From the NCBI GenBank assembly GCA_964641225.1, contig CAZXKC010000004.1:29026-93025 (forward strand): a stretch of DNA of 64,000 nucleotides, in the 5' to 3' direction. Of this stretch, positions 7,882-56,840 are shown piece after piece. The position numbers and the translations under genes were made by a program. Origin of the DNA: an uncultured Candidatus Saccharibacteria bacterium. Its GTDB lineage: Bacteria > Patescibacteriota > Minisyncoccia > UBA6257 > 1-14-0-10-44-23. Under the pieces are notes generated by a model. That model did not search any database. It was not told where the DNA came from and saw nothing but the letters and a program-made list of their open reading frames with translations. Positions within the stretch are counted from its first letter, which is position 1; every line of letters starts with the position of its first letter.

Positions 7882-8020
7882 ACCCACTGAGCTATCGCGA
7901 GCCGCCCTTGGCGGCGGTTACGAATGCGGCGGTGGCCGCAACCTTGAGCGACAAGGCCCTGGTACCTCGGCGCTCCTGGTCTTAAAATAAGAGCCGAGGG
8001 GCCGCCATAGGCGCGAGAGT
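7882..8020 (-). repeat. Copy A of a roughly 140-nt conserved structured element, 5' of tRNA-Val
   Basis: About 85-90% identical to the elements at 12763-12904 and 56702-56840. It contains covarying hairpins and ends with GGCTCGCGATAGCTCAGTGG. Confidence 0.45.
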
Positions 8021-8124
8021 ACAGATATAGTACAAAAAAATGCCCATTTGGGCAAGAGAAGTCTCCTTCCGAGCGGCACAACAAGGGTCGCGCCGCTCGG
8101 GGAAATGGTTGCTGTTGTTGAGGT

Positions 8125-9582
8125 TCAGACGTGCAGTTCGGCGGTGCCGGAAAGCACGTCACAGTACTTCATCAGTGCGGGATCCACATAGGTGGCGAGG
8201 AACTGATCCACCTGCCGGGGAGCGCACCCGATGAAGACAGCGGGATCAGTGAGCAAGCGCATGCCACCACTGACTGCCATCTCGGCGAAGTAGGGATCCT
8301 CGCAGAGCCGATCCAGCAGGTCGTTGGCGCCGTCACCTTCCTTCACGCGCTTGCCGGCTTCCTGCGAATGAACCCGGATCTTCTCGTGGCAGACCTGGCG
8401 ATCCGCCCCGTACCGCTCCACCATCTCCATGATCACCTGTTCGGTGGCCAGGAACGGCAGTTCGGCTCGCAGGTTCCGCTCGATGACTTTGGGGTAGACC
8501 ACTGTCCCCTCGAAGACGTTCTGCATGATGATCAGAATGGCGTCGATCGACAGGAAAGCCTCCGGCAAGTAGATCCGGCGACCCGCGCTGTCGTCGAGCG
8601 TGCGCTCGAAGAACTGAGTCGCCTGCGTCATGAACGCATCGAGAGGCAGGATCATGGCGTGGCGCGAGAGCGAATCGGCTCGCTCGGACCGCATCGGGTT
8701 TCGCTTGTAAGCCATTGCGCTGGAGCCGATCTGGCCCTTCTCGAACGGCTCCTCGATCTCCTTGAGCATCTGGAGAACGCGCAGGTCGAGACAGATCTTA
8801 TGGACGCTGGCGGCCAGCCCGCCGAGCGCCGAGAGGACCATGGCGTCGATCTTGCGCGGGTAGGTCTGCCCGGGCACCATGAACCGCTCCGAGAAACTGA
8901 AGGCGGTCGCGACCAGGTAGTCGAGCCGCTCCACCTTTGCCTCGTCCCCCTTGAACAGCTTGAGGAACGAGTCCTGGGTGCCAGTGGCACCCTTGGCGCC
9001 GAGGAAGAAGATCTTGGGGATCAACTCCTCGATCGCCTGCAGATCCAGCAGCAGGTCCTGAATCCACATTGCAGCCCGCTTGCCGACAGTAGTCGGCTGG
9101 GCCGGCTGCAGATGCGTCCTGCCCAACGTCGGCAGTTCACGGTACTGCAGAGCGAACTTCCGCATCCGGTCGATCACTCGAGCGAGCGAAACGCAGGTCA
9201 TGCGCAGCGCGTCACGCAGGATCACCAGGTCGGCGTTGTCGGTCACATAGCAACTGGTGGCACCGAGGTGGATGATCGGCTTGGCCAGCGGACAGATCGC
9301 GCCGAAGGTCTCTACGTGCGCCATCACGTCGTGCCGCTTCTGTCGCTCGAAGGCAGCGGCGGCCGTGTAGTCGATGTCACGCAGATGGGACTCCATCTCG
9401 GCGAGCTGCGCGCTGGTGATCGAGAGCCCGAGCTTTTGCTCGGCGCGTGCGAGCTCCAGCCAGAGCTTGCGCCAGAGATAGAACTTGTTGTCGTCGCCAA
9501 ACAGCTTCTGCATGGCATCCGACGAGTAGCGGCTGACGAGCGGATTTCGCCACCGTTCGGTGGGACTTTCGGTTGCAGTCAC
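8125..9582 (-). CDS. purB: Adenylosuccinate lyase
   Basis: Fumarate-lyase signature GSSAMAYKRNPMRSE and an N-terminal region typical of PurB. Local GC is about 64% against a background of about 45%. Confidence 0.85.
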   Translation of the reverse strand: MTATESPTERWRNPLVSRYSSDAMQKLFGDDNKFYLWRKLWLELARAEQKLGLSITSAQLAEMESHLRDIDYTAAAAFERQKRHDVMAHVETFGAICPLAKPIIHLGATSCYVTDNADLVILRDALRMTCVSLARVIDRMRKFALQYRELPTLGRTHLQPAQPTTVGKRAAMWIQDLLLDLQAIEELIPKIFFLGAKGATGTQDSFLKLFKGDEAKVERLDYLVATAFSFSERFMVPGQTYPRKIDAMVLSALGGLAASVHKICLDLRVLQMLKEIEEPFEKGQIGSSAMAYKRNPMRSERADSLSRHAMILPLDAFMTQATQFFERTLDDSAGRRIYLPEAFLSIDAILIIMQNVFEGTVVYPKVIERNLRAELPFLATEQVIMEMVERYGADRQVCHEKIRVHSQEAGKRVKEGDGANDLLDRLCEDPYFAEMAVSGGMRLLTDPAVFIGCAPRQVDQFLATYVDPALMKYCDVLSGTAELHV

Positions 9583-9663
9583 GTAGCACTCCTTGAGGGG
9601 TTGTTACGCTCCTGCACACGCAGTCGCTCTTCCCCGCACCCACCCTACCAAAATATTCTGCTC

Positions 9664-10449
9664 TTAAGCAACTAATGTATAAAAATTTGAGAACAGCATT
9701 GCCACCACAATTGGCCCTGTTCCACCGGGCGTGGGAGTGATGTGGCCTGCAACGCGCGAGGCGGATTTAAAATCAACGTCGCCCGACAGCGTATCACTCT
9801 CGTCGCGGCCATATCCGTAATCAATTACAACAGCACCTTTTTTGAGATGATCGCCGTTAATGAGGCGCGGTACACCAGTACCGGTAATCACGAGGTCGGC
9901 GTTACGAACAATTTCCGGCTTATACCCGCCCTTGTTCATAATGGTGACGTGTTTAACTTTGCCCATGAGCCAATCTGCAATTGGTCGGCCGATGAGAAGT
10001 CCTGAGCCAACCACCACCACCTCCTTATCGGCCACATCAAAGGCGACTTCTTTTAAAATTCGCTTGAGCGCACCAGCGGCCGGGGCCAAAATTTTGCTGG
10101 TCTCGCCGTTTAACACATCAACATCTTTGTCGATACCAATCTCATTGAGCACCGCAATGCGGTCGTACTTGACCGGAAGCGGCAACTGAATAATGACTGC
10201 ACCGACGTCAGGATTGGTATAAATTTCATGAACTTTTTTCTGTAACTCAACCTGCGCGAGCGTGTCTGCAAAACGATATAAATGAAATTTGACCCCAAGC
10301 GAGCGAGCCGCCATCTCTTTTTGTTTAAGAAAACTTAATGAGGCCGCATCATCGCCCACTAAAATTGCCGCGAACTCCTTTTCGGGAACAAGTTGCTTTG
10401 CAAGTTCCTTTAAAATCTTCTCCGCTATTTTTGCACCGTCAATAATCAT
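9664..10449 (-). CDS. folD: Bifunctional methylene-THF dehydrogenase / methenyl-THF cyclohydrolase
   Basis: IIDGAKIA..., VVVGSGLLIGRPIA, PTPGGTGPIVVAML. Confidence 0.85.
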   Translation of the reverse strand: MIIDGAKIAEKILKELAKQLVPEKEFAAILVGDDAASLSFLKQKEMAARSLGVKFHLYRFADTLAQVELQKKVHEIYTNPDVGAVIIQLPLPVKYDRIAVLNEIGIDKDVDVLNGETSKILAPAAGALKRILKEVAFDVADKEVVVVGSGLLIGRPIADWLMGKVKHVTIMNKGGYKPEIVRNADLVITGTGVPRLINGDHLKKGAVVIDYGYGRDESDTLSGDVDFKSASRVAGHITPTPGGTGPIVVAMLFSNFYTLVA

Positions 10450-10485
10450 AGTTATTTACCTATTCGCGCGAATTAGAGAATAGGA

Positions 10486-11760
10486 TTAGTACGGAAGTGG
10501 AAACTTTTTACAGAGCGCAAGCACCTCTTTGCGAACCTTAACCGGCGACTCTTTTAAATCAATCAACCTATGAATCCAACCGGCAAGCATTTTCATTTCT
10601 TTTTCTTTCATACCGCGGCTGGTAATCAGCGGCGTACCCATGCGCACCCCAGAGGGCCGAAACGGCTTGTCGTCGCCCGGGACGGAATTGCGATTGGCAA
10701 TAATTCCAGCTTTTTCAAGCAGCTGCTCCCCTTCTGAGCCGGTAATCCCCTTATTTTTCATATTCAGAAGCAGCAAATGATTTTGCGTCCCACCGGAGAC
10801 AATCTCAAAACCAAAGCGCATAAGTTCATCTGCAAGCACCTTCGCATTTTTCACGATCTGCTGCCCGTACTTCTTAAATGCCGGTTTTTGCATAAACTCA
10901 AACATGAGCGCAATTGCCGCCGTCTGGTTGTTGTGTGGCCCCCCTTGAATACCCGGGATAATTGCTTTGTTAATCGCCATCGCAATCTGCTGGCCTTTAG
11001 AAAAAATGACAGCGCCGCGCGGTCCGCGCATGGTCTTATGCGTTGTTGCCATCACGACATCAGCATACGGAAACGGACTTGGGTGTGTTCCGGCGGCAAT
11101 CAAACCGGCAATGTGGCTAACGTCAGCGACGTGATATGCGCCAACTTTTTTAGCAATTTCACCGATACGTTTGAAGTCGATCAGATGAGAATAGGCCGTT
11201 GCGCCGGAATAGATCATTTTCGGTTTGTGCTCGTTTGCCAGTTTTTCAATCTGTGCGTAATCAAGCAAGCCTGTTTTTTCATTGAGCTCATACTGTACCG
11301 AATTATAAAATGTTCCGGAAAAATTCAATTTAAAGCCGTGGGTTAAATGACCGCCTGCGGCCAGCGCCATACCGAGCACGGTGTCGCCCGGCTTCATTAG
11401 CGCAAAATAAATTGCCATATTTGCAGCTGAACCTGAAGCAGCTTGGACATTAAGATACCAGGTGTTTGCGTCAGCTGGATTAATATCTTCAACTTTCGTC
11501 GGTAATTCTATGGATGGCTTTCCTTTTAATTTAAAAGCCTTAAAACCCTCAACTTGAGCCATGGTTTCAATCTCATCGCAAAATTCGTTGCCGGGGTAAT
11601 AGCGACGCCCCGGATAGCCCTCTGAGTATTTATTAACAAGCGGCGTGCCAAGGACACGCAAAATTTCCGGATCAACAATATTTTCGGATGGTATTAAACC
11701 AATCGTTTCATTTTGGCGCTTTGTTTCCGCGTGTATAAATTTCCAAAGTTTTTGTGACAT
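10486..11760 (-). CDS. glyA: Serine hydroxymethyltransferase
   Basis: LIPSENIVDPEIL..., PLP-binding TTHKTMRGPRGA. Confidence 0.9.
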   Translation of the reverse strand: MSQKLWKFIHAETKRQNETIGLIPSENIVDPEILRVLGTPLVNKYSEGYPGRRYYPGNEFCDEIETMAQVEGFKAFKLKGKPSIELPTKVEDINPADANTWYLNVQAASGSAANMAIYFALMKPGDTVLGMALAAGGHLTHGFKLNFSGTFYNSVQYELNEKTGLLDYAQIEKLANEHKPKMIYSGATAYSHLIDFKRIGEIAKKVGAYHVADVSHIAGLIAAGTHPSPFPYADVVMATTHKTMRGPRGAVIFSKGQQIAMAINKAIIPGIQGGPHNNQTAAIALMFEFMQKPAFKKYGQQIVKNAKVLADELMRFGFEIVSGGTQNHLLLLNMKNKGITGSEGEQLLEKAGIIANRNSVPGDDKPFRPSGVRMGTPLITSRGMKEKEMKMLAGWIHRLIDLKESPVKVRKEVLALCKKFPLPY

Positions 11761-12053: not shown

Positions 12054-12266
12054 TTACGGTTGTGCCGTATTGTAAGCGACTAACAACTTTTCTTTAAGAT
12101 TGCGCACAACAATAGAGAGCGTCATCTCTTTGTTTCGGATAAGCTCAAGCGTTACGGCCAAAAGCTGCTCCTCCGCTGTTTCGATAAACAAACGCAAAAG
12201 CTCTTTGTCATCTGCAGACACGTCTGACTCGGCAATAAGTTTTGATAAGGCCTCTTTAGTATTCAT
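12054..12266 (-). CDS. Small hypothetical protein, 70 aa
   Basis: The ORF is co-oriented with, and spaced tightly against, the 12272-12493 gene. Confidence 0.25.
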   Translation of the reverse strand: MNTKEALSKLIAESDVSADDKELLRLFIETAEEQLLAVTLELIRNKEMTLSIVVRNLKEKLLVAYNTAQP

Positions 12267-12271
12267 ATTCT

Positions 12272-12493
12272 TTAGTGATGTCCTCCGCCATGCCCACCGC
12301 CGCCGCCATGACTCTTACCACCGCCGGAAGCTACCTTGCCCGACATAAGAGCCTTATCGGCCTTTTCTAACCCACCCTCTTCGTTAACAGTGCCAAAAAG
12401 ATGATATGGGATAAGCGCGTAATTTAAAATAGACCACGCGGCAATGCCGCCTAAAAATTTACCCGTATTTTCCATTGCCGTTTCAAATTTCAT
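12272..12493 (-). CDS. Small protein with a Gly/His-rich C-terminal tail (GGGKSHGGGGGHGGGHH)
   Basis: ORF with a hydrophobic central segment and a Gly/His-rich tail. Function unknown. Confidence 0.3.
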   Translation of the reverse strand: MKFETAMENTGKFLGGIAAWSILNYALIPYHLFGTVNEEGGLEKADKALMSGKVASGGGKSHGGGGGHGGGHH

Positions 12494-12674
12494 ATAGTGG
12501 CACTATATCAAAAAATGGTGTTCGTGGGAAGGATACTCTATCGTTTATTTTTTACCTACGTAAGCTTGGTGCGCGCGGGAAGGACACCCCTTCGCTGGGC
12601 GGCTTCGGGGTGCAAGTCTCCTGAAATACATAGCAAGATACCACTAAGATAGTCAGATGACTGATGCGGTTTTG

Positions 12675-12746
12675 TGCGCGTGGGAAGGATCGAACTTCCG
12701 GCCTTTTCATTATCAGTGAAATGCTCTACCACTGAGCTACACGCGC
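12675..12746 (-). tRNA. tRNA-Ile (anticodon GAT)
   Basis: Hand-folded: acceptor GCGCGTG/CACGCGC, anticodon loop CTGATAA. Confidence 0.75.
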
Positions 12747-12762
12747 ATACGGGTATTCTATA

Positions 12763-12904
12763 CTACTGAGCTATCGCGAGCCGCCTTTGGCGGCGGTTAC
12801 AAAAGCGGCGGTGGCCGCAACCCTGAGCGACAAGGCCCGGGTACCTCGGTCCTCTTTTATTCTATAACAAGAGCCGAGGGGCCGCCACACGCGCATGTAG
12901 TCGA
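12763..12904 (-). repeat. Copy B of the roughly 140-nt tRNA-associated structured element, 5' of tRNA-Ile
   Basis: Shares its core with copies A and C. The first hairpin shows compensatory changes (CUCUU...AAGAGG here versus CUCGGCUC...GAGCGCCGAG in A and C). Confidence 0.45.
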
Positions 12905-12954
12905 ATAGGAAATATTTTAGACTAAGTCGGCAACTTTGGCAACAAGTGTATTTT

Positions 12955-13287: not shown

Positions 13288-13298
13288 ACAAATTCTTT

Positions 13299-17213: not shown

Positions 17214-17819
17214 CTAAGCCCCAAGTTTCGTTACTTGACCTCGACGAGCCACCGCAAGAGGTAGCTCCAGCCGCGGCCAGCCTGGCGGAAGAACTCGACG
17301 CCGTCGCTTCCCACGTACGGGAAGAAGACGCGGTCGGCCGGACCGACCCACGAGGCATCGGCGACTCCGACCCAGCTTCCGTCGGTCTTCGGGTAGGCCT
17401 TTCTTAAAGGCCTTGCGCCACTGGCCCTGCGGGATCTTCCCGTGCCTGGCCAGCTCCTCCTTCACCGCCTCGAAACTCGGCTGGTAGCCGATCGAGACCA
17501 GCTTGAACTTCCTGGTCTGCGGCTCGGCGATCTCCTGGCCAGTGAAGCGCCAGGTGCCCGTGAAGCCTTCGTCCGTGATCATCTGGAGTCCGGTGAAAGG
17601 CTCCGTGATGGAAAGTTCGAAGACCTCGCCGTCCTGCGGATAGGTCCGCAGTTCGGGGATCTTCCGCACCGCCTCCTCGATGGCGTCGGCGCAGCGGTTG
17701 ATGGCGAAGGCGTCGATGCAGACGCCGGTCGCGGCCAGTCGCTCACGCTTGATGCCGCGCTTGACCAGCTCCTTCGCGATCGCCGTACCGAGCGCCAAAT
17801 CCACTTCGTTGCCTCTCAT
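17214..17819 (-). pseudogene. Frameshifted high-GC gene of unknown function
   Basis: GGAGGA RBS then ATG at 17819 (MRGNEVD...). About 62% GC. The last 50 or so codons continue in another frame as ...TDGSWVGVADASWVGPADRVFFPYVGSDGVEFFRQAGRGWSYLLRWLVEVK*. The ORF-track tail (Arg-rich) looks like out-of-frame translation. Confidence 0.4.
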
Positions 17820-17890
17820 CGGAATCCTCCAAGCTATTCTTGAAAACACCTACGCGGCGCATTCTTGAACAGCGGTAAGGCGGCTTTTGT

Positions 17891-21112: not shown

Positions 21113-21197
21113 GGAGGGGTGGCAGAGTGGTCTAATGCACCGCACTTGAAATGCGGCGTGCCGCAAGGCACCGTGAGTTCGAATCTCACCTCCTCCG
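21113..21197 (+). tRNA. tRNA-Ser (anticodon TGA), class II
   Basis: Acceptor GGAGGGG/CTCCTCC, anticodon loop CTTGAAA, long variable arm, T-loop GTTCGAATC. Confidence 0.75.
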
Positions 21198-22790
21198 CAA
21201 GTTGAGATTCTTGTCATACCGAGCCTCCAAAGACCCCGTTCCGACGCGGGTTCTTGGAGGTTCGAATGAAGACTTGGTCTCTGGAACAGCAGCCGTGTAT
21301 TTTCTGATAAGAAACGCCGTGTTGCCGTTATCCCACTTCACTTTTTTGTCTAAGAGGCGGAGGTTCGAATCCTGCCCGAGGGCAGCGACAAATTCCCGTC
21401 GTTTTTCTGGCGTAGCCTTATCCCAGCGTTTAGCGACCTCAGTAGCGAAGACAAATCCTTCTTCGGCTTTATTAACCCAGTTCACCACCTCTGCGTTAAC
21501 CTCGTTAGCAACTTGATTAAGCCTAGCCTGGTCTTTAAGAAGCTCCTTTTTACGCTCCGCAAACTGCTTAGCATCAATCTCCTCATCAGCACGCATATCA
21601 ATGAGACGTTTGAGCCTCTGAGCACAGGCATCGTCGGCCCTACGCTGGGCGGTCAAGATTGCTTCCCGCTCACGGAATTGGTTCTCGTTTTCCTTTCTTA
21701 GTTTTGCCAAAGCCCAATCCCGGAAACGCGGAGAGATATCCATACCCTCAACAACCTCCTCGATCTGTTTTTCTAGAGCCTTCTCTTCCACGAGAGGCTG
21801 CGCACAGCGAGGTTTCAGCTGTTTAGTACAGTGATAATAGATATAGGTATGGACATTGCCGTTTTTCTGTCGTTTTATACGTTCCTCGGCAGTTATAGCT
21901 GCGCCACACGCCCCGCACCGAAGTATGCCGACATATTTAAACCAGCGTCGTTCCTGGGGCCGAGGCATACCTTTGCGGCCCAACAATTTTTGGACGCGAT
22001 CAAACTCTTCGAGGGTAACCATTGGCTTGTGATTTCCTTTATATAGCTTCCTGTTTTCTTCATTTCCATATTCAAACCACCCGTAGTAGAAGGGATTGTT
22101 AAAGAGATGGTAAATAGCTGCCCGAGAGATTGGATTACCACCACCGTTTCTTCGTAGAGGTGTTCGTAGGCCCCAATCCTTCGTAGCGATGTCGAGTACC
22201 TGCGGAGCGGTATAAGCACCAGTCAGCATGAGGTCCCATGCCTTGCGAACTAACGGGAAGATTTCCTCATCAACGAGAATCGTATTTGAACCCTTATCGC
22301 GCAGCCTGCTATTTTTATAGCCGATCGGAGCTGGCCCAGGACGCCAACCCATTCCGACCTTAGTATTCTGTCCGCGTTTTACGTTGGTGCTGAGGTCATC
22401 TACATATTTCTTGGCAATACCGAAGTCCAAGCTCATCATGAACTTGTCATCACCGTTGTTTCGGAAAACTTTCTCAGGTGTACGGATTTCCGTAATGAGG
22501 CCGCGATCCATAAACCAAGAAATTTTTCCACCATCCAACGCATTGCGTGCCAAACGGTCGAGCTTCCAAACTAGAAGTGCGCAACTTTTTTCTTTTTCGA
22601 GATAAGTGAGCATCTCTTCAAAGTGCGGGCGGCCCGGAGACTTGGCCGACTTGCTCTCCTTGAAGGTTGCACAAATCGTGAGCTTCTCGCGCCGCGCATA
22701 ACTCTTAAGTACCTCCTCTTGGGAATCTATCGAGAGAGCCTGCTTATCGTCTGATTCGGAACTTTTGCGGCAGTAGACAACGTACTTCAT
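21186..22790 (-). CDS. Large serine recombinase (integrase)
   Basis: N-terminal resolvase domain with catalytic Ser (YCRKSSESDD), a recombinase domain, a Cys4 zinc ribbon (CGACG...CTKQLKPRC) and a coiled-coil. The ORF 3' end overlaps the tRNA-Ser 3' end, so the true stop may lie earlier. Confidence 0.8.
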   Translation of the reverse strand: MKYVVYCRKSSESDDKQALSIDSQEEVLKSYARREKLTICATFKESKSAKSPGRPHFEEMLTYLEKEKSCALLVWKLDRLARNALDGGKISWFMDRGLITEIRTPEKVFRNNGDDKFMMSLDFGIAKKYVDDLSTNVKRGQNTKVGMGWRPGPAPIGYKNSRLRDKGSNTILVDEEIFPLVRKAWDLMLTGAYTAPQVLDIATKDWGLRTPLRRNGGGNPISRAAIYHLFNNPFYYGWFEYGNEENRKLYKGNHKPMVTLEEFDRVQKLLGRKGMPRPQERRWFKYVGILRCGACGAAITAEERIKRQKNGNVHTYIYYHCTKQLKPRCAQPLVEEKALEKQIEEVVEGMDISPRFRDWALAKLRKENENQFREREAILTAQRRADDACAQRLKRLIDMRADEEIDAKQFAERKKELLKDQARLNQVANEVNAEVVNWVNKAEEGFVFATEVAKRWDKATPEKRREFVAALGQDSNLRLLDKKVKWDNGNTAFLIRKYTAAVPETKSSFEPPRTRVGTGSLEARYDKNLNLRRR

Positions 22791-25442: not shown

Positions 25443-25589
25443 TCTTTATGGACGAGTTGACAGGGTTATGTCAATAGACTCCATATCTTACTTCCAAGCT
25501 AACTCAAGAGGTGATAAAATGTGCTTACAATTTAATACGCCGCAAGGCAGAGCCTAAACCGCCAAGAAATTGACGGCATGGCTCCGAAG

Positions 25590-25700
25590 TCCAATAACGA
25601 CCATTAAGCTCCTAGTCAGAGCGTCGTTATTGGCTATCCAGGGAAACTTGGGTAGGTCCCGTAAGGGATCGCTGGCTGGGAGCTTTGTGTTTCTCAGCCC
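25590..25700 (+). ncRNA. Structured 5' leader RNA, copy 1 (candidate riboswitch or cis-regulator), upstream of the 25719 operon
   Basis: Four helices, each with compensatory changes relative to copy 2. Hairpin 1 has an invariant 21-nt loop CAUUAAGCUCCUAGUCAGAGC. Hairpin 2 has loop GGAAAC. Hairpin 3 has a GNRA tetraloop. Hairpin 4 has loop GAGCUUUGUG, complementary to the loop-1 sequence AAGCUCC (predicted pseudoknot). Confidence 0.45.
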
Positions 25701-26624: not shown

Positions 26625-27656
26625 TTGGTATTTCCCTTGCCTCCGGAGCCGCTTTCGCTATTGGAAGGCCATAGCAGTAGCCTCAGTTATATCGAGATAC
26701 AAGAGAAGGGCAGGAAAAGCCCGGAACCCTTTATTTACGGGGCTAAACATAGTAGTCTCAAGCTAAGATATATGGTGATACCGGGCACAAAGGGCGTAGA
26801 TACCACAGGAGTCACGGCGGGCAACACCGGGAACGAATTGTTTTATTTTTGCATATCCGACACAGAGGATTCAGGCTACCTAGAGCGATTTATCGAACAA
26901 TTAGACGCCCACATACCGTCATTTGTTTTTTCAAAGGACACCCTTGCGAATTATGAGAGGCTTTTAGCAGAGGGAAAAACTTCAAAATCCCCACTGGAGC
27001 ATGCGCGACACCTTCTGCAAAAGACCAGGGCGGGCGGAACGGCCGGATCAGGAGAGCTAGGAGAACTACTGATGTTTCTTTTCGCTAAAAACGTAAAAGG
27101 TGCGAACAAGCTGGTTTCCAAAATTCAGAGCCGGACTAGCACTACGACAACCCAACAGGGGCGCGACGGCAGCTTTATATTGCAGGATGAGCGAGGGGAA
27201 ATTTATATGCTTCTAGGAGAGGCTAAGATGCACCAAGACTCCAATGACGGCTTGAGAGAGGCGCAAACAGATATGAATGCATTTTGGGGCGATCAGGAAC
27301 GTTTGAGCCACGAGATTCGCCTGGCTTCCAGCCACCTCCGCGATGAATTAACTCCCCAGAACACCGCGGCTTATGAAGCCTATTTCATCGACGATAATCC
27401 TAGGCATCAAGAATTGAAATATAAGAGTGTTGTTTTTGTGGGATTCAACTTTCCAGCGTTTTCTGCGCTGATTCAGAAAACAGCAGATTTCAACGCATTC
27501 AGTCAGGAAGTATTAGCCGACCTAAACCGATGTTTCAATAATCAGGCCGCACACATTACTGCTTCTCCGCACCCCAACATTTATTGCTTCGTACCCTTCG
27601 AATCAGTGGAAAGCGCACGGACAGCATTCGCTAGTCGCCACTCATTAACCCACTAA
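26625..27656 (+). CDS. HamA-like (DUF1837-like) putative PD-(D/E)xK effector of a Hachiman-like system
   Basis: Immediately precedes a large SF2 DEAH helicase, with stop and start adjacent. Possible D...(E)xK motif in FILQDERGEIYMLLGEAKM. The true start may be the internal Met (MVIPGTKG). Confidence 0.4.
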   Translation: MVFPLPPEPLSLLEGHSSSLSYIEIQEKGRKSPEPFIYGAKHSSLKLRYMVIPGTKGVDTTGVTAGNTGNELFYFCISDTEDSGYLERFIEQLDAHIPSFVFSKDTLANYERLLAEGKTSKSPLEHARHLLQKTRAGGTAGSGELGELLMFLFAKNVKGANKLVSKIQSRTSTTTTQQGRDGSFILQDERGEIYMLLGEAKMHQDSNDGLREAQTDMNAFWGDQERLSHEIRLASSHLRDELTPQNTAAYEAYFIDDNPRHQELKYKSVVFVGFNFPAFSALIQKTADFNAFSQEVLADLNRCFNNQAAHITASPHPNIYCFVPFESVESARTAFASRHSLTH

Positions 27657-27657
27657 T

Positions 27658-30333
27658 ATGCCAGACCCGGTCATAAACTTATCCAATAAGATTCGGGAAA
27701 GCGGGAAATTCAATGAACGTTTTCTTGCGCTGCAAAAATATGCCGCTAAAAAGCGACTCACCTTTAGCGCTGAGGATGCAACCCCTGAACAACTGCAAAA
27801 ATTGATACTCCAAGCTTCGGTGCTTGCATTGAGCGATGACATTGAGCACAAACGTACAGCTCAAAAAATCATGGCCTTGTTCCACGAGATAAAGCCGGAC
27901 AATCATTTACTAAGCTACGCGATACAAATTTTAGCATCACGACTTGGAAATTTTCCTGTCGTAAGTAATGCATCCACAGTCTTTGGTGAATCCAAAATAT
28001 TTAAAGATGCTTCTGATGAGGCTTCGTTGGATACAGAGTATCTTTTTGACCCTGAAATAATCGCCAACTTATACTCTGAAGAGGCTCAGTCACGATTACA
28101 GATACAAGATAAGGTTTACCATTTTAATATTTTCCAGAAAGAAATACTTGATGCCCTGTCAGAGAAGGCGTTGGTGAGCTTTTCTGCTCCCACATCATTT
28201 GGAAAATCATTCATCGTTCGGCAGCACATAGCGCATCTATATGCTGGTCAGAAAGTTAAACGGGTCCTAGTACTTGTTCCTACCAAGTCCCTGATCGATG
28301 ATTTCTTTGCGGATTTTGTAAAAATAAAACGAGAGCTGAATCTTGATTTTGGCATTTTTACTCACGCCCGTTCCGTAGATGCGGTTCCGGAGAAGGCGGT
28401 ATTTATTCTGACGCAAGAACGGATATCATTCCTCATCACCAAGAATCCTGAATTTGTTAAGTCTTTTGACTTGATTTACTGCGACGAAGCCCACTACATC
28501 TCCAGAGGATATCGCGGATTTGTTTTGCGAAGTGCTCTGAAAAAACTTATCGAGCTGTGCGGAGTGGGCATCGAGGAGGGCAAGGCTCGATATATTTTCA
28601 GCTCCCCATTGATTAAAAATCCTGAGTACTACAAGGGGAAGCTATTTCCCTTACTTTCCTCAGAGCAATCGTTTCATAAAGAAATTCTCTATTCACCGGT
28701 CGAAAAGAATATCCATTTTATTGCCAAAGAAGAGCGGCAATTTAAGTATTATCTTTTGAAGGATTCTTTTGGTGAAGATTCATTCGATGATCGGCTGGAA
28801 GAGCTCGGTTCCAGAAATTTTCCCCAAGGATTAATGACCGAGGATACGAGAGCACAAAAAATCGACCGAGAGATTCGAATGGTTCTGGACTGCAGTGGGA
28901 CAAGCCCTTCAATCTTGTATACCACCAGCCCAATTTTCGCCCACAGATACGCCTTAGCATTGGCCGAGGCTCGACCGGAACGCAACCGAATATCTAGTCA
29001 AGAAATCGAGGATTTGAGCAGATACATTAAAGACCATTACGATGACAACTTTGGCCTAGTGAATATCTTAAAGAAGGGCATCGGCTTGCACTATGGGCCG
29101 ATGCCGACTGGGCTTCGGAGAGCAATGGTTGACCTCTTCGAGCGAGGCCTGATTGATTACATGGTTTGCACCCCAACTCTTCTTGAGGGGGTCAATCTCC
29201 CAGCAAAAAATATCTTTTTATTCTCTGATAGGTATGGAGGGCACGGTGGCAAAGAAAAACACTCGGCGCTATCTTTCTGGAACTTAGTTGGTCGAGCCGG
29301 CAGAATCACTTATGGTCTTTCTGGAAATGTATTCTGCATTGAAGATGAGCCTCAAAAATACGAAGACCTCTTCGAAAATACTGAAACCGAGATAACTGAC
29401 CCGGAGGCGAACGTCATGGAGAATGACACTCGGAGGAGTTACATTGTAAAAACTTTTCTTTCTGAAACTGATAGGTTTGACTATTTTCGGTCACATAGTC
29501 GAGGTGATATAGAATACCTAATATTTGAACTTTTGACCCGTGAAAATCCCGAACGAATCTTGGACAATTTCAATCTTAACCCCGAAGAAAAAGCTAGGAT
29601 GCTTGCTGCTATTCAGCAGCAGAGAGCGGAACTGAGCATATCGTTAGAGCTGGTCAACAAGAACCCTGGCATCGACCCGCGCTTGCAGGATAGATTGTTA
29701 GCCAATCTGCGATCGCTCCCAGAAGAAGAGCTTCGTGGTTACTTGGAAATTCCAGGTAATACTTTGGCAGTTACCGGTTCGCAGCTAGCAGATATCCTTG
29801 GGTACGTAAAACGGGATTTGGCCTGGCCAAAAAGGGATGAAAGCAGAACTGCGAACCGAATTATCCAGTGGCTACACGAACATCCTATTTCTTTTTTTAT
29901 TAACCAAGTTTTGCAATATATCGAACCGGGCAGCGAATTCGACACCCACTTGGGGAAGATTGAAAAAGCTATCGAAATTCTTCGGGAGGTTGACCGAGAG
30001 TTATCCTACAACGCTCCCAAATATCTTAAATGCTTCTACGATTTACTCATTCAAATCGCCGCTGAACAAGGGATTGCCGATATAAATATCTATGAGGAAA
30101 AAATTGAATCATTCCTATTTTCGCTCGAGTCAGGCGTCTCTTCTGTAATAGCAAAATTTCTCCTCGAGAAGGGTGTTTCAAGGCCAGTTGCCATACGAGT
30201 AAGCAGTTTAGTTGATGATATAGCTTCAATCCCAATCTCAAATGATTTTTTCGAGAAACCCGAAGTCCTCGAGAGATTGAGTCGCCTCTCAAAACTCGCC
30301 CTAGATGAGCTTAAGGAGCGACTCGGTGTTTAG
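27658..30333 (+). CDS. SF2 DExH-box helicase (Ski2/Hel308-like core), HamB-like
   Basis: Motif I SAPTSFGKSF, motif II LIYCDEAHYI, helicase C-terminal motifs GIGLHYGPMP...MVCTPTLLEGVNLPA, and a long C-terminal extension. Confidence 0.6.
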   Translation: MPDPVINLSNKIRESGKFNERFLALQKYAAKKRLTFSAEDATPEQLQKLILQASVLALSDDIEHKRTAQKIMALFHEIKPDNHLLSYAIQILASRLGNFPVVSNASTVFGESKIFKDASDEASLDTEYLFDPEIIANLYSEEAQSRLQIQDKVYHFNIFQKEILDALSEKALVSFSAPTSFGKSFIVRQHIAHLYAGQKVKRVLVLVPTKSLIDDFFADFVKIKRELNLDFGIFTHARSVDAVPEKAVFILTQERISFLITKNPEFVKSFDLIYCDEAHYISRGYRGFVLRSALKKLIELCGVGIEEGKARYIFSSPLIKNPEYYKGKLFPLLSSEQSFHKEILYSPVEKNIHFIAKEERQFKYYLLKDSFGEDSFDDRLEELGSRNFPQGLMTEDTRAQKIDREIRMVLDCSGTSPSILYTTSPIFAHRYALALAEARPERNRISSQEIEDLSRYIKDHYDDNFGLVNILKKGIGLHYGPMPTGLRRAMVDLFERGLIDYMVCTPTLLEGVNLPAKNIFLFSDRYGGHGGKEKHSALSFWNLVGRAGRITYGLSGNVFCIEDEPQKYEDLFENTETEITDPEANVMENDTRRSYIVKTFLSETDRFDYFRSHSRGDIEYLIFELLTRENPERILDNFNLNPEEKARMLAAIQQQRAELSISLELVNKNPGIDPRLQDRLLANLRSLPEEELRGYLEIPGNTLAVTGSQLADILGYVKRDLAWPKRDESRTANRIIQWLHEHPISFFINQVLQYIEPGSEFDTHLGKIEKAIEILREVDRELSYNAPKYLKCFYDLLIQIAAEQGIADINIYEEKIESFLFSLESGVSSVIAKFLLEKGVSRPVAIRVSSLVDDIASIPISNDFFEKPEVLERLSRLSKLALDELKERLGV

Positions 30334-31393: not shown

Positions 31394-31969
31394 GTGCGCG
31401 ACATCCTCGGCATCATCGCCGCAATCCTGACGCTCGCTGGGTTCATCCCGGCGGGCGTCGGAGCAGTACGCGGACCAGTTCGCCCAAGCAGGGCGACATG
31501 GCTCATCTGGGCGGCGGAGGCGGTACTCATCTACCAGACCTTCGCCGCCGCAACTCCGGACTCAAGCGCACTCTGGATTCCGCTGGGATTCACCGTAGGA
31601 GCGGCAGGGATGTTTCTCCTTTCGGTTTCATTCGGGGAGGCCGGGTGGAGTGCCCTCGACAAGTGGTGCCTGGCAGGAGCGGGTGGCACGATCATCGTCT
31701 GGCAACTCGTTGGACCTATCGCGGGGCTACTAGCTGGTATCGCTACCGACATGATCGGAGCGGTGCCGACGGTGGTCAAGACATGGAGAGATCCAAGTAG
31801 CGAAAGTCGTGCACAGTGGTTGCTTTGGTGGCTCGGTGCCATCTTCAACCTCTGCGCGATCAAAGACTGGCAATCCGTGGAGGCGGCGTACCCGCTCTAT
31901 GGAATTGTTCTGACAACTACAGTAGCCGGCATTATGGCCGGTAGAAAGAGGAAGTATGCCCAAGGCTAA
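31394..31969 (+). CDS. Polytopic membrane protein (high-GC cassette), paralogous to the native gene at 61801-62355
   Basis: GTG start. Shares ATWLIW...W...P...E...W(L/M) motifs and TM topology with the 61801 protein, although the two genes differ in GC by about 17 percentage points. Confidence 0.45.
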   Translation: MRDILGIIAAILTLAGFIPAGVGAVRGPVRPSRATWLIWAAEAVLIYQTFAAATPDSSALWIPLGFTVGAAGMFLLSVSFGEAGWSALDKWCLAGAGGTIIVWQLVGPIAGLLAGIATDMIGAVPTVVKTWRDPSSESRAQWLLWWLGAIFNLCAIKDWQSVEAAYPLYGIVLTTTVAGIMAGRKRKYAQG

Positions 31970-32980: not shown

Positions 32981-33071
32981 TAAAAGCTATACTATAAGCA
33001 TATCGTTTTTATAACAATTTAATGCAGTGAAGCCTAACCCGCGCGGGCAACCACGTGGTATGGCATCAAAT

Positions 33072-33185
33072 CCGGTAAAGGTCATTAAGCTCCTAGTCAG
33101 AGCTACCTTTACCGGTCATATCTGGAAACGGATATGGGTGGGCGCAAGCCCATCGCTGGCTAGGAGCTTTGTGATTTCTAGCCTG
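33072..33185 (+). ncRNA. Structured 5' leader RNA, copy 2, upstream of the 33201 operon
   Basis: Same four-helix architecture and conserved loops as copy 1, with different stem sequences (see copy 1). Confidence 0.45.
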
Positions 33186-42315: not shown

Positions 42316-42627
42316 ATGGGCAACGCTACAATGCCCGTCGTGACCGACTGCCGCCACCCGGACCTGTACGGAGACGTCAGCGGATGCGTATTTTGTGAGC
42401 CCTGTCCGGACTGCACCATGCGGATTCCGGTCGAGCATCGGAACGCGCACGAGCGATCACATCGCCCCGCGCCGGCTAGACCTCCTCTGTCCGAGAATTT
42501 CATCGAGCAGGCCAGCGCAGATGCGGCAGCACTGAATCCGGAAAACGACCCACTCATCAATCAGGCTCAGGAGGCGGCCCGGCCTCGGACCGGTGCCGAA
42601 GGCGGCGCCACAATGAGCCCTGAGTAA
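42316..42627 (+). CDS. Small Cys/His-rich protein in the same high-GC patch
   Basis: CRHPDLYGDVSGCVFCEPCPDC, zinc-finger-like. Confidence 0.3.
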   Translation: MGNATMPVVTDCRHPDLYGDVSGCVFCEPCPDCTMRIPVEHRNAHERSHRPAPARPPLSENFIEQASADAAALNPENDPLINQAQEAARPRTGAEGGATMSPE

Positions 42628-49355: not shown

Positions 49356-49952
49356 CTACTGAACGACTGCCGGAGCCGTGACGTCCTGCTTCTTGCCATC
49401 CCAGCTATCGAGATGACCGTGAGAGCTGAACACGAACACGCCTCGTTGCTCGGACTCTACGTCCCAACGCTTGCACTGCCACACCTTCACTTTGACGTAG
49501 TCCCAGTTGCCCTTCACGCCAGTGATACTGGCGATTGCACGGATTGTTATCCAGCGACAGGCCCCTCCGCTGGGCTGCTTCTCGTTCAACTTCACATGCA
49601 CGACGAAGAAGACGATCCGGGACTGAAAGTTGTCCTCGGGTGATGCGGGCCGACCGTAGACGCCACGCTTGTAGGCGTATTTCTCCACGGCCTCATGTCG
49701 AAACCCTCTGGCATGCGCGATGTCGACTACTGCTTCGGCGAGCCTATCGGGCTGAGGAAGAACTCGAATCTCTCGCTCTTCCGTCTTGGGCGGGACTCGA
49801 AATTCCCATTCCTCCCAAGCCGCGACCGGCAGCTTCAGACCCTTCTCGACGGCGGCTCGCACCGCTTCTTGAGCAAAGGTCATCCACTTGGAAATCTGAA
49901 GGACCGTCAGACCATCCCGCTCACGAGCAAACCTATTACGGTGACGACGCAT
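49356..49952 (-). CDS. Hypothetical protein in a high-GC (about 58%) patch
   Basis: ORF only. Basic N-terminus. Confidence 0.35.
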   Translation of the reverse strand: MRRHRNRFARERDGLTVLQISKWMTFAQEAVRAAVEKGLKLPVAAWEEWEFRVPPKTEEREIRVLPQPDRLAEAVVDIAHARGFRHEAVEKYAYKRGVYGRPASPEDNFQSRIVFFVVHVKLNEKQPSGGACRWITIRAIASITGVKGNWDYVKVKVWQCKRWDVESEQRGVFVFSSHGHLDSWDGKKQDVTAPAVVQ

Positions 49953-52803: not shown

Positions 52804-52835
52804 AGTATAAAAATTTGAAATTAATAAATCACGTG

Positions 52836-52906: not shown

Positions 52907-53061
52907 TGATGAGCGAAGTGATACTGGGCGAACTACACGTATCGGCGGAGCCGATACTAATAGTAGCAAGATTGCCCAGGTTCGCCAGTACTCTGGCGAC
53001 AATCTTACGTACAGGCCCAGCGACGAGCGTATCGCTATTGTACGATAAAACACTGTTCATT

Positions 53062-53595: not shown

Positions 53596-53822
53596 AGAGA
53601 TATAAGGGCAAGATACATTACGCCTAAGAGTACAATCACGCCTACTACAAAAGACACTCGAAACTCCAAAAGCTTTATCAGGCCGATACCATACGTCCGC
53701 CAGTGATAATCAAGAATGCCTCCGGCAACAACGCAAAGCACGACCGTTAACCAAAACAGGTATGGGGCGGCTTTAACCAAAATACCCGTAAAAGAAATTG
53801 ACGAAATATCTGGAAATGGCAT
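53592..53822 (-). CDS. Small two-TM membrane protein
   Basis: Hydrophobic ORF overlapping the next gene by 4 nt. Confidence 0.3.
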   Translation of the reverse strand: MPFPDISSISFTGILVKAAPYLFWLTVVLCVVAGGILDYHWRTYGIGLIKLLEFRVSFVVGVIVLLGVMYLALISL

Positions 53823-53829
53823 GTAGTTA

Positions 53830-54867
53830 TTAACGCAGCGCTAATTTTTTACGTTTACGGGCGGCAATCAATCCGTCGAGGCTCCAATTGCCTCCGTCGT
53901 TTATGACCAGATAGAGCGCGAGCGCGAGCAAAATATAATGCGGCCAGACGGCTTCTTTGAAAAAGATCACCGAGAGTAAATACAAGAAAAAGGTCATAAA
54001 GGAGGCAAGTCGTGTCTCAAAGCCCAAAATAATACATAACCCAACAAGCACCTGCGCGGCTCCTGTGCCGAGCGAAATTAAGAGCGGATCCGAGGGGAAT
54101 AGCCAGTTGATGTGGTTGAGACCATATTTCTCAACGATTTCGAGTATGATTATTGGGTGCAAAAACTTAATCGTAATTGCCGGAAATAATACTGAAACAC
54201 CATAGGTAATTCTGATAATCGGCAACTCCCACTCCTTCCATTTTTTTATAAACGTGTTCGCTTTAGTCCGCACTCCATCGAGTGAGAAAATCATTGAACC
54301 AAACAGTAGCAATGCGAGAAATTCACCAACATAGTTAACGTAGGTGAGCATATAGTCCTTATACACCACCGTCATCAATAGCATATATATAAGACCAACT
54401 GCTCCGGCAATTCGTGTGTAGATACCGAAAAGAATCATAATGCCTAACGCATACAACGCAGGCCGAAGCATGATTCCGCCCGGCAGCGATGAAAGTGGAA
54501 TCTCGGGGCCCAAAAACACATTAAAATGTGCAGAGGCAAGGCAAGAAACAGCAAGCGCAATGCGGAGCGCAACATGGCCAACCGGCTCAAGACGCTTTAA
54601 CTTTACATCGAAGATAAGACCGATTTTTGAGGATAGAAAAAAGTAATAGACAATAAAAAGCGCAGCGATACTTAGACCTACACACAGAGCGATAAACACG
54701 TTATGCGGGTCTTTGAGCGCATCAAAGACATTAATACTCCAATCCTGCATTCCCCGCTCGATAGACTCAGCCGGAAGCACATAATTTTCGTGGGCGCGCG
54801 CAAGTACAGGCACCATGCTTAACAGCAACGTTGTGGATACAAAAAAAATCTTCTGAATCGCTCGCAT
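53830..54867 (-). CDS. Polytopic membrane protein (DoxX/HTTM-like; uncertain)
   Basis: About eight predicted TM helices. Confidence 0.4.
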   Translation of the reverse strand: MRAIQKIFFVSTTLLLSMVPVLARAHENYVLPAESIERGMQDWSINVFDALKDPHNVFIALCVGLSIAALFIVYYFFLSSKIGLIFDVKLKRLEPVGHVALRIALAVSCLASAHFNVFLGPEIPLSSLPGGIMLRPALYALGIMILFGIYTRIAGAVGLIYMLLMTVVYKDYMLTYVNYVGEFLALLLFGSMIFSLDGVRTKANTFIKKWKEWELPIIRITYGVSVLFPAITIKFLHPIIILEIVEKYGLNHINWLFPSDPLLISLGTGAAQVLVGLCIILGFETRLASFMTFFLYLLSVIFFKEAVWPHYILLALALYLVINDGGNWSLDGLIAARKRKKLALR

Positions 54868-55202
54868 ATGATTACTATTTAGGATACCACACCGTGCTAC
54901 TGAGCATGCTCAGTAGCAAAAATTCCGTACATCAAAATTCTCGCGGTGAGCGGGATATTTTGACCTGCGGAAGCGGGTTTTTGTTAGCAAACAAAAACGG
55001 GCGGCTCCAGAAAAATACTCGCTTCAAAGCCGCCCAGGAATGATTCGAAAGAATCCTGCTCTTTGCGAATATTAAAATACCTCGGGTCAGTAGGTATTTT
55101 AATGTGCGGTGTGTCCCGGTCTAGAACCAGGAGCTTTCAATAAACGCAAAAAGCCCAGATGGAATTTAGGGTGTCTCGGTCCTCGATAAAAAATGTTGAC
55201 TG

Positions 55203-55290
55203 CGGTGGGGGTGGGATTCGAACCCACGGGCCTCTTTCGAGGCAGACGGTTTTCGAGACCGACCCGTTATGACCACTTCGGTACCCCACC
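55203..55290 (-). tRNA. tRNA-Ser (anticodon CGA), class II
   Basis: Acceptor GGTGGGG/CCCCACC, anticodon loop CTCGAAA, long variable arm, T-loop GGTTCGAATCC. Confidence 0.65.
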
Positions 55291-56274
55291 GGGAATAAAA
55301 CTTTTATATCGTGCAAGATGCTTCTGATTACTGCTCTTAATTTCAGCAAAATATCTCTCAATCTCTTTCTGTTTACGCAAGTAAACAGAATTTTGCTTAA
55401 CAGTGTTGGTTGGCGAAAATCCGAGGTGGACGAGCAGTTGTACGATATCTTTTCTTAGACTATCTGCATTGCTCGTAATTGTCCAGCCGAGATGATAATA
55501 CTCTTTACTCTTAATTCGGTGACGATCTACATAAATACAGCCATCAGTATCGAATAAGCCCCTTATAAATGCGCGCTGATACTTTATTTCTGAATTAATC
55601 CATCCAGGAATGATCAATCGCCCTTTCATTTTATTACCGGCAACTCCTCCATGCTCCATTAGAAATGATGCCAATGCGCGCGATGAAAACACAACTTCAA
55701 CTGCTAACTGCTCTTTTTTCTTACGAATCCTTGACGATAAACCAAATAATTCTTTAGCAATTCTTTGAACGTACAGAGCATGTTCATAGTCCGTTTCGGA
55801 ATTAGTTGTCACGCTTACCTGATACCTATCAATGTGGCCATCGCCGAATACAATACCAAAAAATTCTGCCAATTTCTCAGAATACTGTGGTTGGCGAATC
55901 TTTTTCAATTGTTTAAAGCCATTACGCGATCCTTTTTGTTCACGTGCCGATATTAATCCGCCTCGTCGACGACCTTCTGGCGTACCAAAATTACCATATA
56001 AATTAATACGCGCTCGACCACCTTTTGATGCGGCTTTCTTAATATGCCAAAAATCTTTTAGATATTGAGGGCTCAGTATTGTTTCAATAATCCCCGCAAG
56101 ATTAACCATCTTTTTAAAAACACTTGATGGTATCGAATTTTTTCCACCCCTCCAATCAGTAATCGTTCTCACGGAAACGTTAAAATATTGAGCAAGAAAT
56201 TTTGAACTATGCCCCTGAGATGATAAAGCGGCAAATAGCAAAGCTGTATTCGCGCGCGTGATCTTAACTCTCAT
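55267..56274 (-). CDS. Free-standing LAGLIDADG-family homing-endonuclease-like protein
   Basis: Two LAGLIDADG motifs (LAEFFGIVFGDGHI and FIRGLFDTDGCIYV) with an N-terminal HTH. The C-terminal 24 nt overlap the 5' end of tRNA-Ser(CGA). Confidence 0.55.
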   Translation of the reverse strand: MRVKITRANTALLFAALSSQGHSSKFLAQYFNVSVRTITDWRGGKNSIPSSVFKKMVNLAGIIETILSPQYLKDFWHIKKAASKGGRARINLYGNFGTPEGRRRGGLISAREQKGSRNGFKQLKKIRQPQYSEKLAEFFGIVFGDGHIDRYQVSVTTNSETDYEHALYVQRIAKELFGLSSRIRKKKEQLAVEVVFSSRALASFLMEHGGVAGNKMKGRLIIPGWINSEIKYQRAFIRGLFDTDGCIYVDRHRIKSKEYYHLGWTITSNADSLRKDIVQLLVHLGFSPTNTVKQNSVYLRKQKEIERYFAEIKSSNQKHLARYKSFIPGGVPKWS

Positions 56275-56387
56275 AATTTAATAGTATCATAATTTCGAGT
56301 TATTAATATAGTAACTAGTCTAGCAAGCTTCTCAAATCGCAAATCAAAAAACACCCCGTTTGAGGTGTTTTTTGAAAGATACGAATC

Positions 56388-56660
56388 TTATTTACCCATG
56401 TTGGCCATTCCGAAATCCTTCGAAACAACCTTCCAGCACTCGTGCGGACCGGCGTTTGACTTGGTTACTGCGAAGTAACGGCCGTTCTTCTCCTCAATTC
56501 TCCACTCCGCTGACTTAAACTTTGCCTTCGACTTTACATCATAAAACTCCATCTCTTCTTTTGCCATACTAAAATTAGTTAGGTTAGTGGCCACGGTCGA
56601 CATCGCAGCCGTTGTTAAGGAAAAGTATACCCTACGGCAAGCTTTTTGCCAAATTGACAA
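56388..56660 (-). CDS. Small hypothetical protein
   Basis: ORF only. The start may be the internal MAKEE. Confidence 0.3.
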   Translation of the reverse strand: MSIWQKACRRVYFSLTTAAMSTVATNLTNFSMAKEEMEFYDVKSKAKFKSAEWRIEEKNGRYFAVTKSNAGPHECWKVVSKDFGMANMGK

Positions 56661-56701
56661 TGAGCTCCCTTAAATGATGTAATTACTGCACAGCAAAAGC
56701 C

Positions 56702-56840
56702 GCCCCTGTAGTTCAATGGATGGCGGCCCCTCGGCTCTTATTATAAAATAGGAGCGCCGAGGTACCAGGGCCTTGTCGCTCAAGGTTGCGGCCACCGCCG
56801 CATTCGTAACCGCCTCCACTTTGTTTCGGCTCGCGATAGA
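56702..56840 (+). repeat. Copy C of the roughly 140-nt tRNA-associated structured element, 5' of tRNA-Arg
   Basis: Same core as copies A and B. Preceded by GCCCCTGTAGTTCAATGGAT, which resembles the 5' 20 nt of the downstream tRNA-Arg. Confidence 0.45.

Follow-up and report, generated by a model that had tools for sequence, protein, structure and literature searches.

What is a GC-rich, hairpin-forming repeat doing directly 5′ of three tRNA genes in a patescibacterial genome? The repeat lies in a 64,000-nt stretch of DNA, here called the window (contig CAZXKC010000004.1 of assembly GCA_964641225.1, positions 29,026 to 93,025, from an uncultured Candidatus Saccharibacteria bacterium). An original prediction made from the sequence had described it as an element of roughly 140 nt that occurs three times, each time immediately 5′ of a tRNA gene and in the orientation of that gene. 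Our analysis upholds this description and refines the length: the repeat, which we call E, measures 113, 114, and 116 nt in its copies A, B, and C, respectively. E is a real and unannotated sequence. A small selfish DNA element is a likelier identity for it than a novel RNA gene; a functional leader RNA is a serious rival, and an intron, part of a split tRNA, the remnant of an integrative-element end, or an artefact are all unlikely.

Element E interrupts the 5′ halves of relic tRNA genes

The three copies are found at 7894..8006 on the minus strand (copy A, GGCGGCC...CTCGCGAT), 12773..12886 on the minus strand (copy B), and 56722..56837 on the plus strand (copy C, in which the 3′ hairpin is replaced), and they are 83-89% identical in pairwise comparison. 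Searches with blastn, nhmmer, and a covariance model each recover just these three copies within the window, all adjoining tRNA genes. The covariance model, which was built from the three copies, scores them at 135-146 bits, and its next match reaches 10.6 bits with filters off. A pattern of the 43-nt core, in which just two sites vary, matches exactly three times in the window and not at all in 100 shuffles; conservation along E is uneven. The copies have a GC content of 60-66% vs 47% for the window. There are 12 tRNA genes in the window, and E is present at three of them, each time in the orientation of the tRNA just downstream. An assembly artefact can be eliminated as the source of the repeat because copy B, together with 120 nt on either side, is 100% identical in two independent Logan assemblies (SRR14271336 and SRR14271332). 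We note that the Logan contigs end inside tRNA-Ile, in sequence common to tRNA-Val.

The boundaries of E were refined by reading its junctions against the adjacent tRNAs and against relatives. Of the genomes with usable contigs, the closest were assembly GCA_964549935.1, represented by loci L002 and L086 (serine hydroxymethyltransferase, SHMT, 86% and ABC transporter 67% identical to the proteins of the window), an ENA contig, L004 (SHMT 83% identical), and assembly GCA_023255625.1, represented by L088 (ABC transporter 70% identical). The best matches of the SHMT and ABC transporter of the window lie in metagenome-assembled genomes of Patescibacteria, of Paceibacteria/Harrisonbacteria type. 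In a genome scan anchored on SHMT, the relatives among the matches listed were no more than 57% identical.

The junctions reveal that each copy of E sits within the 5′ half of an older tRNA gene, spanning positions 1 to ∼40, and that every E-bearing relic ends at or just past the anticodon arm, with a complete tRNA starting 0-10 nt further on. The original prediction had noted tRNA-5′-like sequence before each copy; this holds, and the likeness also continues 3′ of E up to the anticodon arm. Upstream of functional tRNA-Val(GAC) (7771-7843, minus strand), the layout is GCGCCTAT|E|AGCTCAGTGGGTTTTGTATAGCGTTTCTGGTTTATTGAAAA. The 5′ piece (8007..8014, minus strand) corresponds to tRNA-Val positions 1-8, and the continuation (7853..7893, minus strand) aligns to positions 8-43 with a score of 25, where the shuffle maximum is 20; a spacer of 9 nt (7844-7852) separates it from the tRNA. 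The pattern is the same at tRNA-Ile(GAT) (12674-12746, minus strand), where the relic reads GCGCGTGT|E|AGCTCAGTAG...; its 5′ piece (12887..12894, minus strand) again covers positions 1-8, and the degenerate continuation AGCTCAGTAGTATAGAATACCCGTAT (12747..12772, minus strand) reaches the tRNA. At tRNA-Arg(CCT) (56859-56932, plus strand), the layout is GCCCCTGTAGTTCAATGGAT|E|AGAGCAGCTCCGTCCTCAAAC, with a 5′ piece that covers positions 1-20 and is of the L088 allele type (56702..56721, plus strand) and a continuation that runs through the anticodon loop (56838..56858, plus strand). All three functional tRNAs were identified by tRNA gene search and Rfam, and alignment of alleles shows the tRNA-Arg to be of the L086 type.

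In every case E enters at a T|AG step; in tRNA numbering, this step is U8|A9 for Val and Ile, but U20|A21 for the Arg relic. When E is excised in silico, the Ile relic becomes GCGCGTGT|AGCTC, identical to tRNA-Ile, and the Arg relic becomes GGAT|AGAGC, a sequence that is uninterrupted (GGATAGAAC) in the L088 allele. The insertion is therefore clean: excision restores the tRNA sequence, no target is duplicated, and boundary ambiguity amounts to just 1-2 nt. The 3′ flanks of E are alike (TAGCTCAG twice and TAGAGCAG once). Relic sequence totals only ∼125 nt of the 64-kb window, yet it holds three of three copies of E.

Promoter-like sites precede the relics. One with the form TTGCCC-17-TACTAT (8027..8055, minus strand) was recognized by eye upstream of the Val relic, where it falls below the scan threshold and is conserved in L002; a second, TTGCCA-17-TAAAAT (12914..12942, minus strand), was returned by a promoter scan just upstream of the Ile relic; and a third, TTGACA-18-TGTAAT (56654..56683, plus strand), precedes the Arg relic, where it was found by eye and alignment, and L088 has conserved it. 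Since these sites lie ahead of the relics and the gap between relic and tRNA is too short to hold a promoter, E is probably co-transcribed as part of a ∼160-180 nt pre-tRNA 5′ leader that RNase P would have to remove. Transcription is predicted to start near 8020, 12907, and 56690.

Relics without E and turnover of tRNA genes

Relatives carry relics without E. At the orthologous locus in L002, the Ile relic lacks E and reads GCGCGTGTA, CCTGCCTGCCGGCAGGCAGG, GCTCAAGGAATCATTGATAATGAAA, where the middle segment is a 20-nt palindrome inserted at position 9/10. The Val relic of L002, also at the orthologous locus and also without E, consists of GCGCTTTAGCTTAGTGGG, an insert of about 63 nt in the D-loop, and AGAGCGTTTC.... 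Within 43 kb of this relative, the palindrome CCTGCCTNCCGGCAGGCAGG recurs exactly at three places, all within tRNA-flanking relic modules; one copy was matched on both strands, being palindromic. The 20-nt palindrome is thus an analogue of E, its counterpart in another lineage. Written as CCTGCCT(G/A)CCGGCAGGCAGG, the perfect GC-rich 20-nt palindrome is seen at L002 624-643 and 8126-8145 and at L086 6844-6863, with a variant near L086 15350.

A third kind of relic precedes tRNA-Ala(GGC), whose leader opens with a copy of the tRNA's own 5′ end (GGGCCTGTAGTAAGATT...) both in the window (52907-53020, minus strand) and in L086 (17360-17475). The two Ala leaders are 85% identical, with one hairpin exchanged (TCGCCAGagtaCTGGCGA vs TCGTCTCCtcgcAGGAGACGA), although the ABC-transporter proteins of the same genomes are just 67% identical. 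Such identity between genomes with far more diverged proteins suggests a constraint on the structure of the Ala leader.

The Arg locus differs from these in that tRNA-Arg(CCT) of L086 and L088 has neither relic nor E. Together with the relics that lack E, this argues that E did not create the tRNA duplications. The Arg relic of the window matches the L088 allele at 36/41 positions without gaps and the window's own tRNA-Arg at 32/39 positions with gaps. Its promoter sequence (TTGCCAAATTGACA...AAATGATGTAAT) is shared with L088, where it stands directly before an intact tRNA-Arg, and the functional tRNA-Arg of the window, with its downstream flank, is of the L086 type. Because relic and promoter match L088 and the working gene matches L086, the comparison points to the relic as the old resident gene and to the working tRNA-Arg as a replacement that was joined just 3′ of the anticodon loop. 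The alleles and relics suggest that the tRNA genes of this lineage have been repeatedly replaced rather than simply inherited, with the old halves retained in the transcript. Fragments of tRNA genes are a known footprint of integration and recombination at these loci (PMC9897764). In a strict test, such fragments were found in 10/70 flanks of the close set vs 4/50 flanks of other Candidate Phyla Radiation (CPR)/DPANN and bacterial loci.

Several further arrangements were observed around these tRNA genes. The tRNA-Val and tRNA-Ile genes are 100% identical between the window and L002, though the SHMT proteins are 86% identical. Copies of tRNA 3′ ends (T-loop to 3′ end, 17-19 nt) lie downstream of tRNA-Ile and tRNA-Thr(GGT) in the window and in L002/L086. 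Those in the window (12523-12584 and 61552-61570, both minus strand) repeat the last 16-19 nt of tRNA-Ile and tRNA-Thr(GGT) ∼90-150 nt downstream of the genes; tRNA-Ile has two such copies, one of which is followed by CCA, and the distances of the Ile and Thr copies are the same in the relative. The tRNA-Thr trailer resembles the 3′ part of a relic with a hairpin insert in the T-loop. It also shares GTCGCTCAAG...CTCGCGA...GATAG with E, a resemblance that we dropped because neither nhmmer nor the covariance model gives it significance. In L002, a perfect copy of tRNA-Val positions 36-73 starts 28 nt downstream of the gene, and, in the region 12100-12380, the tRNA-Val is bracketed by a perfect 15-bp inverted repeat (CCATATGCCAATGCA / TGCATTGGCATATGG); this bracketed gene stands between the relic 5′ half and the copy of positions 36-73, like a tRNA gene nested in an older one. 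Downstream of two class II tRNAs of the same relative lies a common structured module with the order ...TCGAATCGCCGGA, hairpin, GAGGCGGTGCCCAGACC, hairpin, GAGTCGAGGGCGA(A/G)TCCCTCC (L002 ∼1680-1830, past tRNA-Leu-CAA; L086 ∼6790-6960, past tRNA-Tyr). The copy at tRNA-Tyr starts with GGGCAG, ends with CTGCCCACCA, and looks like a gutted tRNA; the module gives no Rfam match.

Mobile element or leader RNA

We tentatively favor, at somewhat less than even confidence, the reading in which E is a small (∼114 nt), GC-rich, multi-hairpin, non-autonomous repeat that prefers tRNA D-arm-like DNA and survives only in dead halves. Its basis is the three of three clean, oriented insertions at similar words within ∼125 nt of relic, taken with the palindrome analogue in the relative. 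In the sequence of events that we infer, recombination or integration that breaks immediately 3′ of the anticodon arm would duplicate part of a tRNA gene or replace it, leaving a dead 5′ half; the relics are remnants of former resident tRNA genes and still sit at the native promoters. E would then enter D-arm-like DNA (TAGCTCAG / TAGAGCAG), either by transposing or through recombination of one relic with another like it, and would persist only where the target is dispensable. It would be transcribed from the tRNA promoter in the ∼160-180 nt 5′ leader and cut off by RNase P. The original prediction had offered, among its explanations, a tRNA-targeting miniature element that duplicates the tRNA 5′ portion. 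The first part of this proposal is the one we prefer. The second part fails, given that relics exist without E and the Arg relic is an older allele.

A number of results weigh against mobility. No mobilization route is demonstrated, as neither an enzyme, nor terminal inverted repeats, nor a target-site duplication accompanies E. A Pfam scan of 50 window open reading frames (ORFs) returned no transposase, Y1/HUH protein, TnpB, or tyrosine integrase; the ORFs do include a single LAGLIDADG protein and a single large serine recombinase, which is encoded at 21186-22790 and abuts tRNA-Ser. Terminal inverted repeats are absent from the ends of E, whose inverted repeats are the internal hairpins and a 13-nt pair that joins the 5′ end, flank included, with a segment ∼10-20 nt inside the 3′ end and is absent in copy C. 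Just three copies are known, in one genome, and no polymorphism between empty and filled sites was seen. The spread of E between genomes is unproven because E has not been found outside this genome. Exact-pattern scans of species-representative genomes, viral contigs, and JGI metagenomes gave none, and 39 metagenomic loci with a two-block hairpin pattern were all chance matches by nhmmer. Neither nhmmer across 1.41 Mb of relatives' and other loci, nor the covariance model across 0.53 Mb of Patescibacteria loci, nor blastn against phages and plasmids found E; the reach of all these searches is limited, in that the SHMT protein of even the closest relatives is 14% different and a match in the exact-word scans required 17-32 conserved bases. 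So far, E is seen solely in this Paceibacteria-like Patescibacteria genome. In addition, the Val/Ile pair of copies may have arisen by recombination and not by transposition, because relics A and B have in common a GTAGAG-to-GTATAG change 3′ of E, and tRNA-Val and tRNA-Ile are 90% identical across positions 8-48. Finally, uneven conservation with less variable stems is also what is expected of an RNA or a DNA hairpin that has a function.

The serious rival, which we regard as possible and less probable, is that E functions as a structured module within the 5′ leader of the pre-tRNA, spread by recombination and kept by selection, either as a protein-binding or stabilizing domain or as a small RNA freed by RNase P. 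Its constant orientation and its position downstream of a promoter-like site imply that E would have to be transcribed with the tRNA. RNAalifold predicts a compact four-helix junction, in which a 7-bp closing stem surrounds three hairpins and 98% of 99 pair cells are paired. Variation is concentrated in loops and bulges (6/66 columns vary in predicted stems vs 9/34 elsewhere, p = 0.036), a test that is partly circular because the structure was derived from the same three sequences. The tip of hairpin 1 differs in sequence yet remains a hairpin, and the related Ala leader, with its 85% identity against 67% for proteins and its swapped hairpin, seems to be constrained.

A signature of selection on the RNA fold is nevertheless lacking, which speaks for the mobile element. 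Compensatory changes in hairpin 1 of copy B had been taken as a sign that E is selected as RNA. They are absent: in the three copies, 0/33 predicted pairs are altered on both sides. The CG-to-GA difference in that hairpin sits in an unpaired bulge, and the only changes in pairs are four one-sided switches of the U-A/U-G type. Folding z-scores lie at only about −2, from −1.9 to −2.3 as RNA and from −1.9 to −3.2 as DNA on either strand, and copy C has lost the 3′ hairpin and has one mismatch in the closing stem. Orthologous leaders in the closest available relatives lack E, and within the window just 3/12 tRNAs have it. Rfam 15, searched across the whole window at gathering thresholds, returned just tRNAs and two LOOT RNAs, none of them on E, and the region of copy C gave only weak, chance-level matches at E ≤ 10. 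The original prediction could assign the element to no known RNA family, which is borne out for Rfam 15. ARAGORN and the Rfam tRNA clan likewise do not identify E as a tRNA, tmRNA, or tRNA-like sequence. Of the co-transcribed noncoding leader RNA that had been proposed, the position of E supports co-transcription, whereas the noncoding RNA function is left unsupported by the failure of the covariation claim. A coding role for E was dropped since the copies differ by non-triplet indels, as were an integron attC site and a tRNA-derived origin, for which the motifs proved unfit on reading and no tRNA model matched.

A broader proposal, which we consider doubtful, is that the hairpin inserts, E and those of the relatives alike, form a lineage-wide selected architecture in which the tRNA genes of Patescibacteria are embedded in their own relics; E could then be either a novel type of mobile element, targeting the tRNA D-arm without duplicating its target, or a functional leader RNA or small RNA freed by RNase P. 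Less probable still is an order of events in which E first invaded and killed live tRNA genes and the intact downstream tRNAs are later rescue replacements, for example by recombination with related lineages. Each relic 5′ half inspected bears one or more inserts within the D-arm or close to it. Beside a resident, L088-like relic, the intact tRNA-Arg is foreign and of the L086 type, and homing-endonuclease-like genes adjoin tRNAs in the lineage. All of this would fit such an order. However, a cell in which an essential tRNA with just one gene copy, such as Ile(GAU), is disrupted should die before it can be rescued, and E is not needed to make relics, because Ile, Val, and Ala relics occur in the relative without it.

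That E is the remnant of an integrative-element end (an att-proximal arm), or of the foreign DNA of a replacement, is slightly less credible again. Integration-type tRNA-fragment relics are frequent here and in other CPR/DPANN loci through a known process (PMC9897764), and within the window tRNA-Ser(TGA) directly adjoins the gene of a large serine recombinase. Integrated DNA would lie between relic and intact gene, but E lies inside one relic (8/9 or 20/21), within one repeat unit and not bounded by direct repeats of a tRNA segment. The same 114 nt occur in relics of three different tRNAs, and the neighbors of E are purB and genes for hypothetical proteins of 110 and 248 aa, with no recombinase gene adjacent. 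The relic halves and the 17-38-nt 3′ fragments do resemble scars of integrating elements (Williams 2002; van der Gulik et al. 2023, PMC9897764), including scar-like breakpoints at the anticodon loop or T-loop; unlike scars, many relics here are 5′ halves 0-10 nt from an intact gene with no integrated element between.

Least credible by far is that E is an intron, whether self-splicing or removed by enzymes, or else belongs to a split or permuted tRNA, so that the interrupted copy would yield a functional tRNA: the insertion is clean and without target duplication, and tRNA genes of Patescibacteria often contain group I introns (PMC13011429), but the interrupted copies are degenerate and end at the anticodon arm with no 3′ half to rebuild a full tRNA, as an archaeal-type (bulge-helix-bulge) intron or a split tRNA would require, the site is in the D-arm region and not the anticodon loop, and a four-helix sequence of 113-116 nt matches neither Intron_gpI nor any other Rfam family even at E ≤ 10. 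E shares phylum, kind of host gene, and clean insertion with the introns of Patescibacteria tRNAs (Nakagawa et al. 2026, PMC13011429). Those are self-splicing, interrupt the anticodon loop (e.g., 35/36) of complete genes, and match the Rfam model, whereas E is much shorter (a P3-P9 catalytic core of ∼200 nt or more is needed) and lies in truncated copies.

If E is a mobile element, which known systems does it resemble? Small repeats of bacteria sit in transcribed non-essential sequence and are often co-transcribed with their neighbors (reviews PMC2229807, PMC3184786). Like repetitive extragenic palindromes and bacterial interspersed mosaic elements (REP/BIME), Rickettsia palindromic elements, Correia/NEMIS repeats, and mitochondrial GC clusters, E is short, GC-rich, hairpin-forming, multi-copy, and non-coding. 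It departs from them in having four hairpins and not one palindrome, in having no GTAG/CGTC tag, terminal inverted repeats, or target duplication, and in being known from just three copies, all in relic tRNA halves. IS200/IS605 elements and the ORF-less palindrome-associated transposable elements (PATEs) share with E the lack of target duplication, a short conserved flank, strict orientation, and, in copies A and B only (the 3′ hairpin being lost in C), sub-terminal hairpins near both ends. Against this likeness, neither a Y1 transposase nor TnpB is encoded by the 50 scanned ORFs, the conserved flank comprises no more than T|AG, and the hairpin-to-end distances are not known from characterized IS200/IS605 members. 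A DDE-type miniature inverted-repeat transposable element would differ in its terminal inverted repeats and its target-site duplication of ≥2 bp. As for the leader-RNA rival, regulatory small RNAs are cut from tRNA precursors, such as 3′ETS-leuZ (from a 3′ external transcribed spacer) of E. coli, and E may by analogy be a structured fragment left over when the pre-tRNA is processed, with a possible action in trans.

Other features of the window and meaning for tRNA loci

Two full-length LOOT RNAs (RF03000) are present at 25551-25670 and 33031-33154, both on the plus strand, with 83.5 and 89.4 bits vs a gathering threshold of 46.4. Between them lie a HamA-domain gene and, next to it, a helicase gene (26625-30333); a gene for a 1199-aa helicase-nuclease comes after the second LOOT RNA. 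This region looks like an island, beginning with the large serine recombinase (21186-22790) that abuts tRNA-Ser(TGA). To our knowledge, LOOT RNAs were previously known from marine metagenomes only, without an assigned organism.

The stop codon of a free-standing LAGLIDADG endonuclease ORF (55267-56274, minus strand) falls within the D-loop of tRNA-Ser(CGA) (55202-55290), which lies downstream of it. In the relatives, endonuclease-like genes lie between or beside tRNAs: HNH (L086 7924-8160), GIY-YIG (L087 1507-1743), and NUMOD3 (L088 6426-7208). An ORF with a LAGLIDADG motif, read from the sequence and with no Pfam match on record, has the same kind of position in L004 (226-987). Several high-GC genes (58-64% vs 47%) were noted in the window (8125-9582, 17214-17849, 31394-31969, 42316-42627, 49356-49952, and 56976-57722). 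The high GC of purB and of the 248-aa gene beside tRNA-Arg is old, because relatives retain 61-64% GC in both; purB is not at the corresponding position in L002.

If E is merely a decaying repeat, its practical value is smaller and consists of a warning to annotators about tRNA-like fragments and repeat-induced contig breaks beside CPR tRNAs. The wider pattern may merit more attention than E itself: working tRNAs are nested between relic halves, these halves gather hairpin inserts, and genes for endonucleases lie close by. If mobile, E would be a small element that targets the most conserved stretch of tRNA genes, and it would help explain the turnover of tRNA loci in streamlined genomes with single-copy tRNAs. 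In addition, it would point to a class of pre-tRNA leaders in Patescibacteria, long and structured, that is overlooked in annotation at present.

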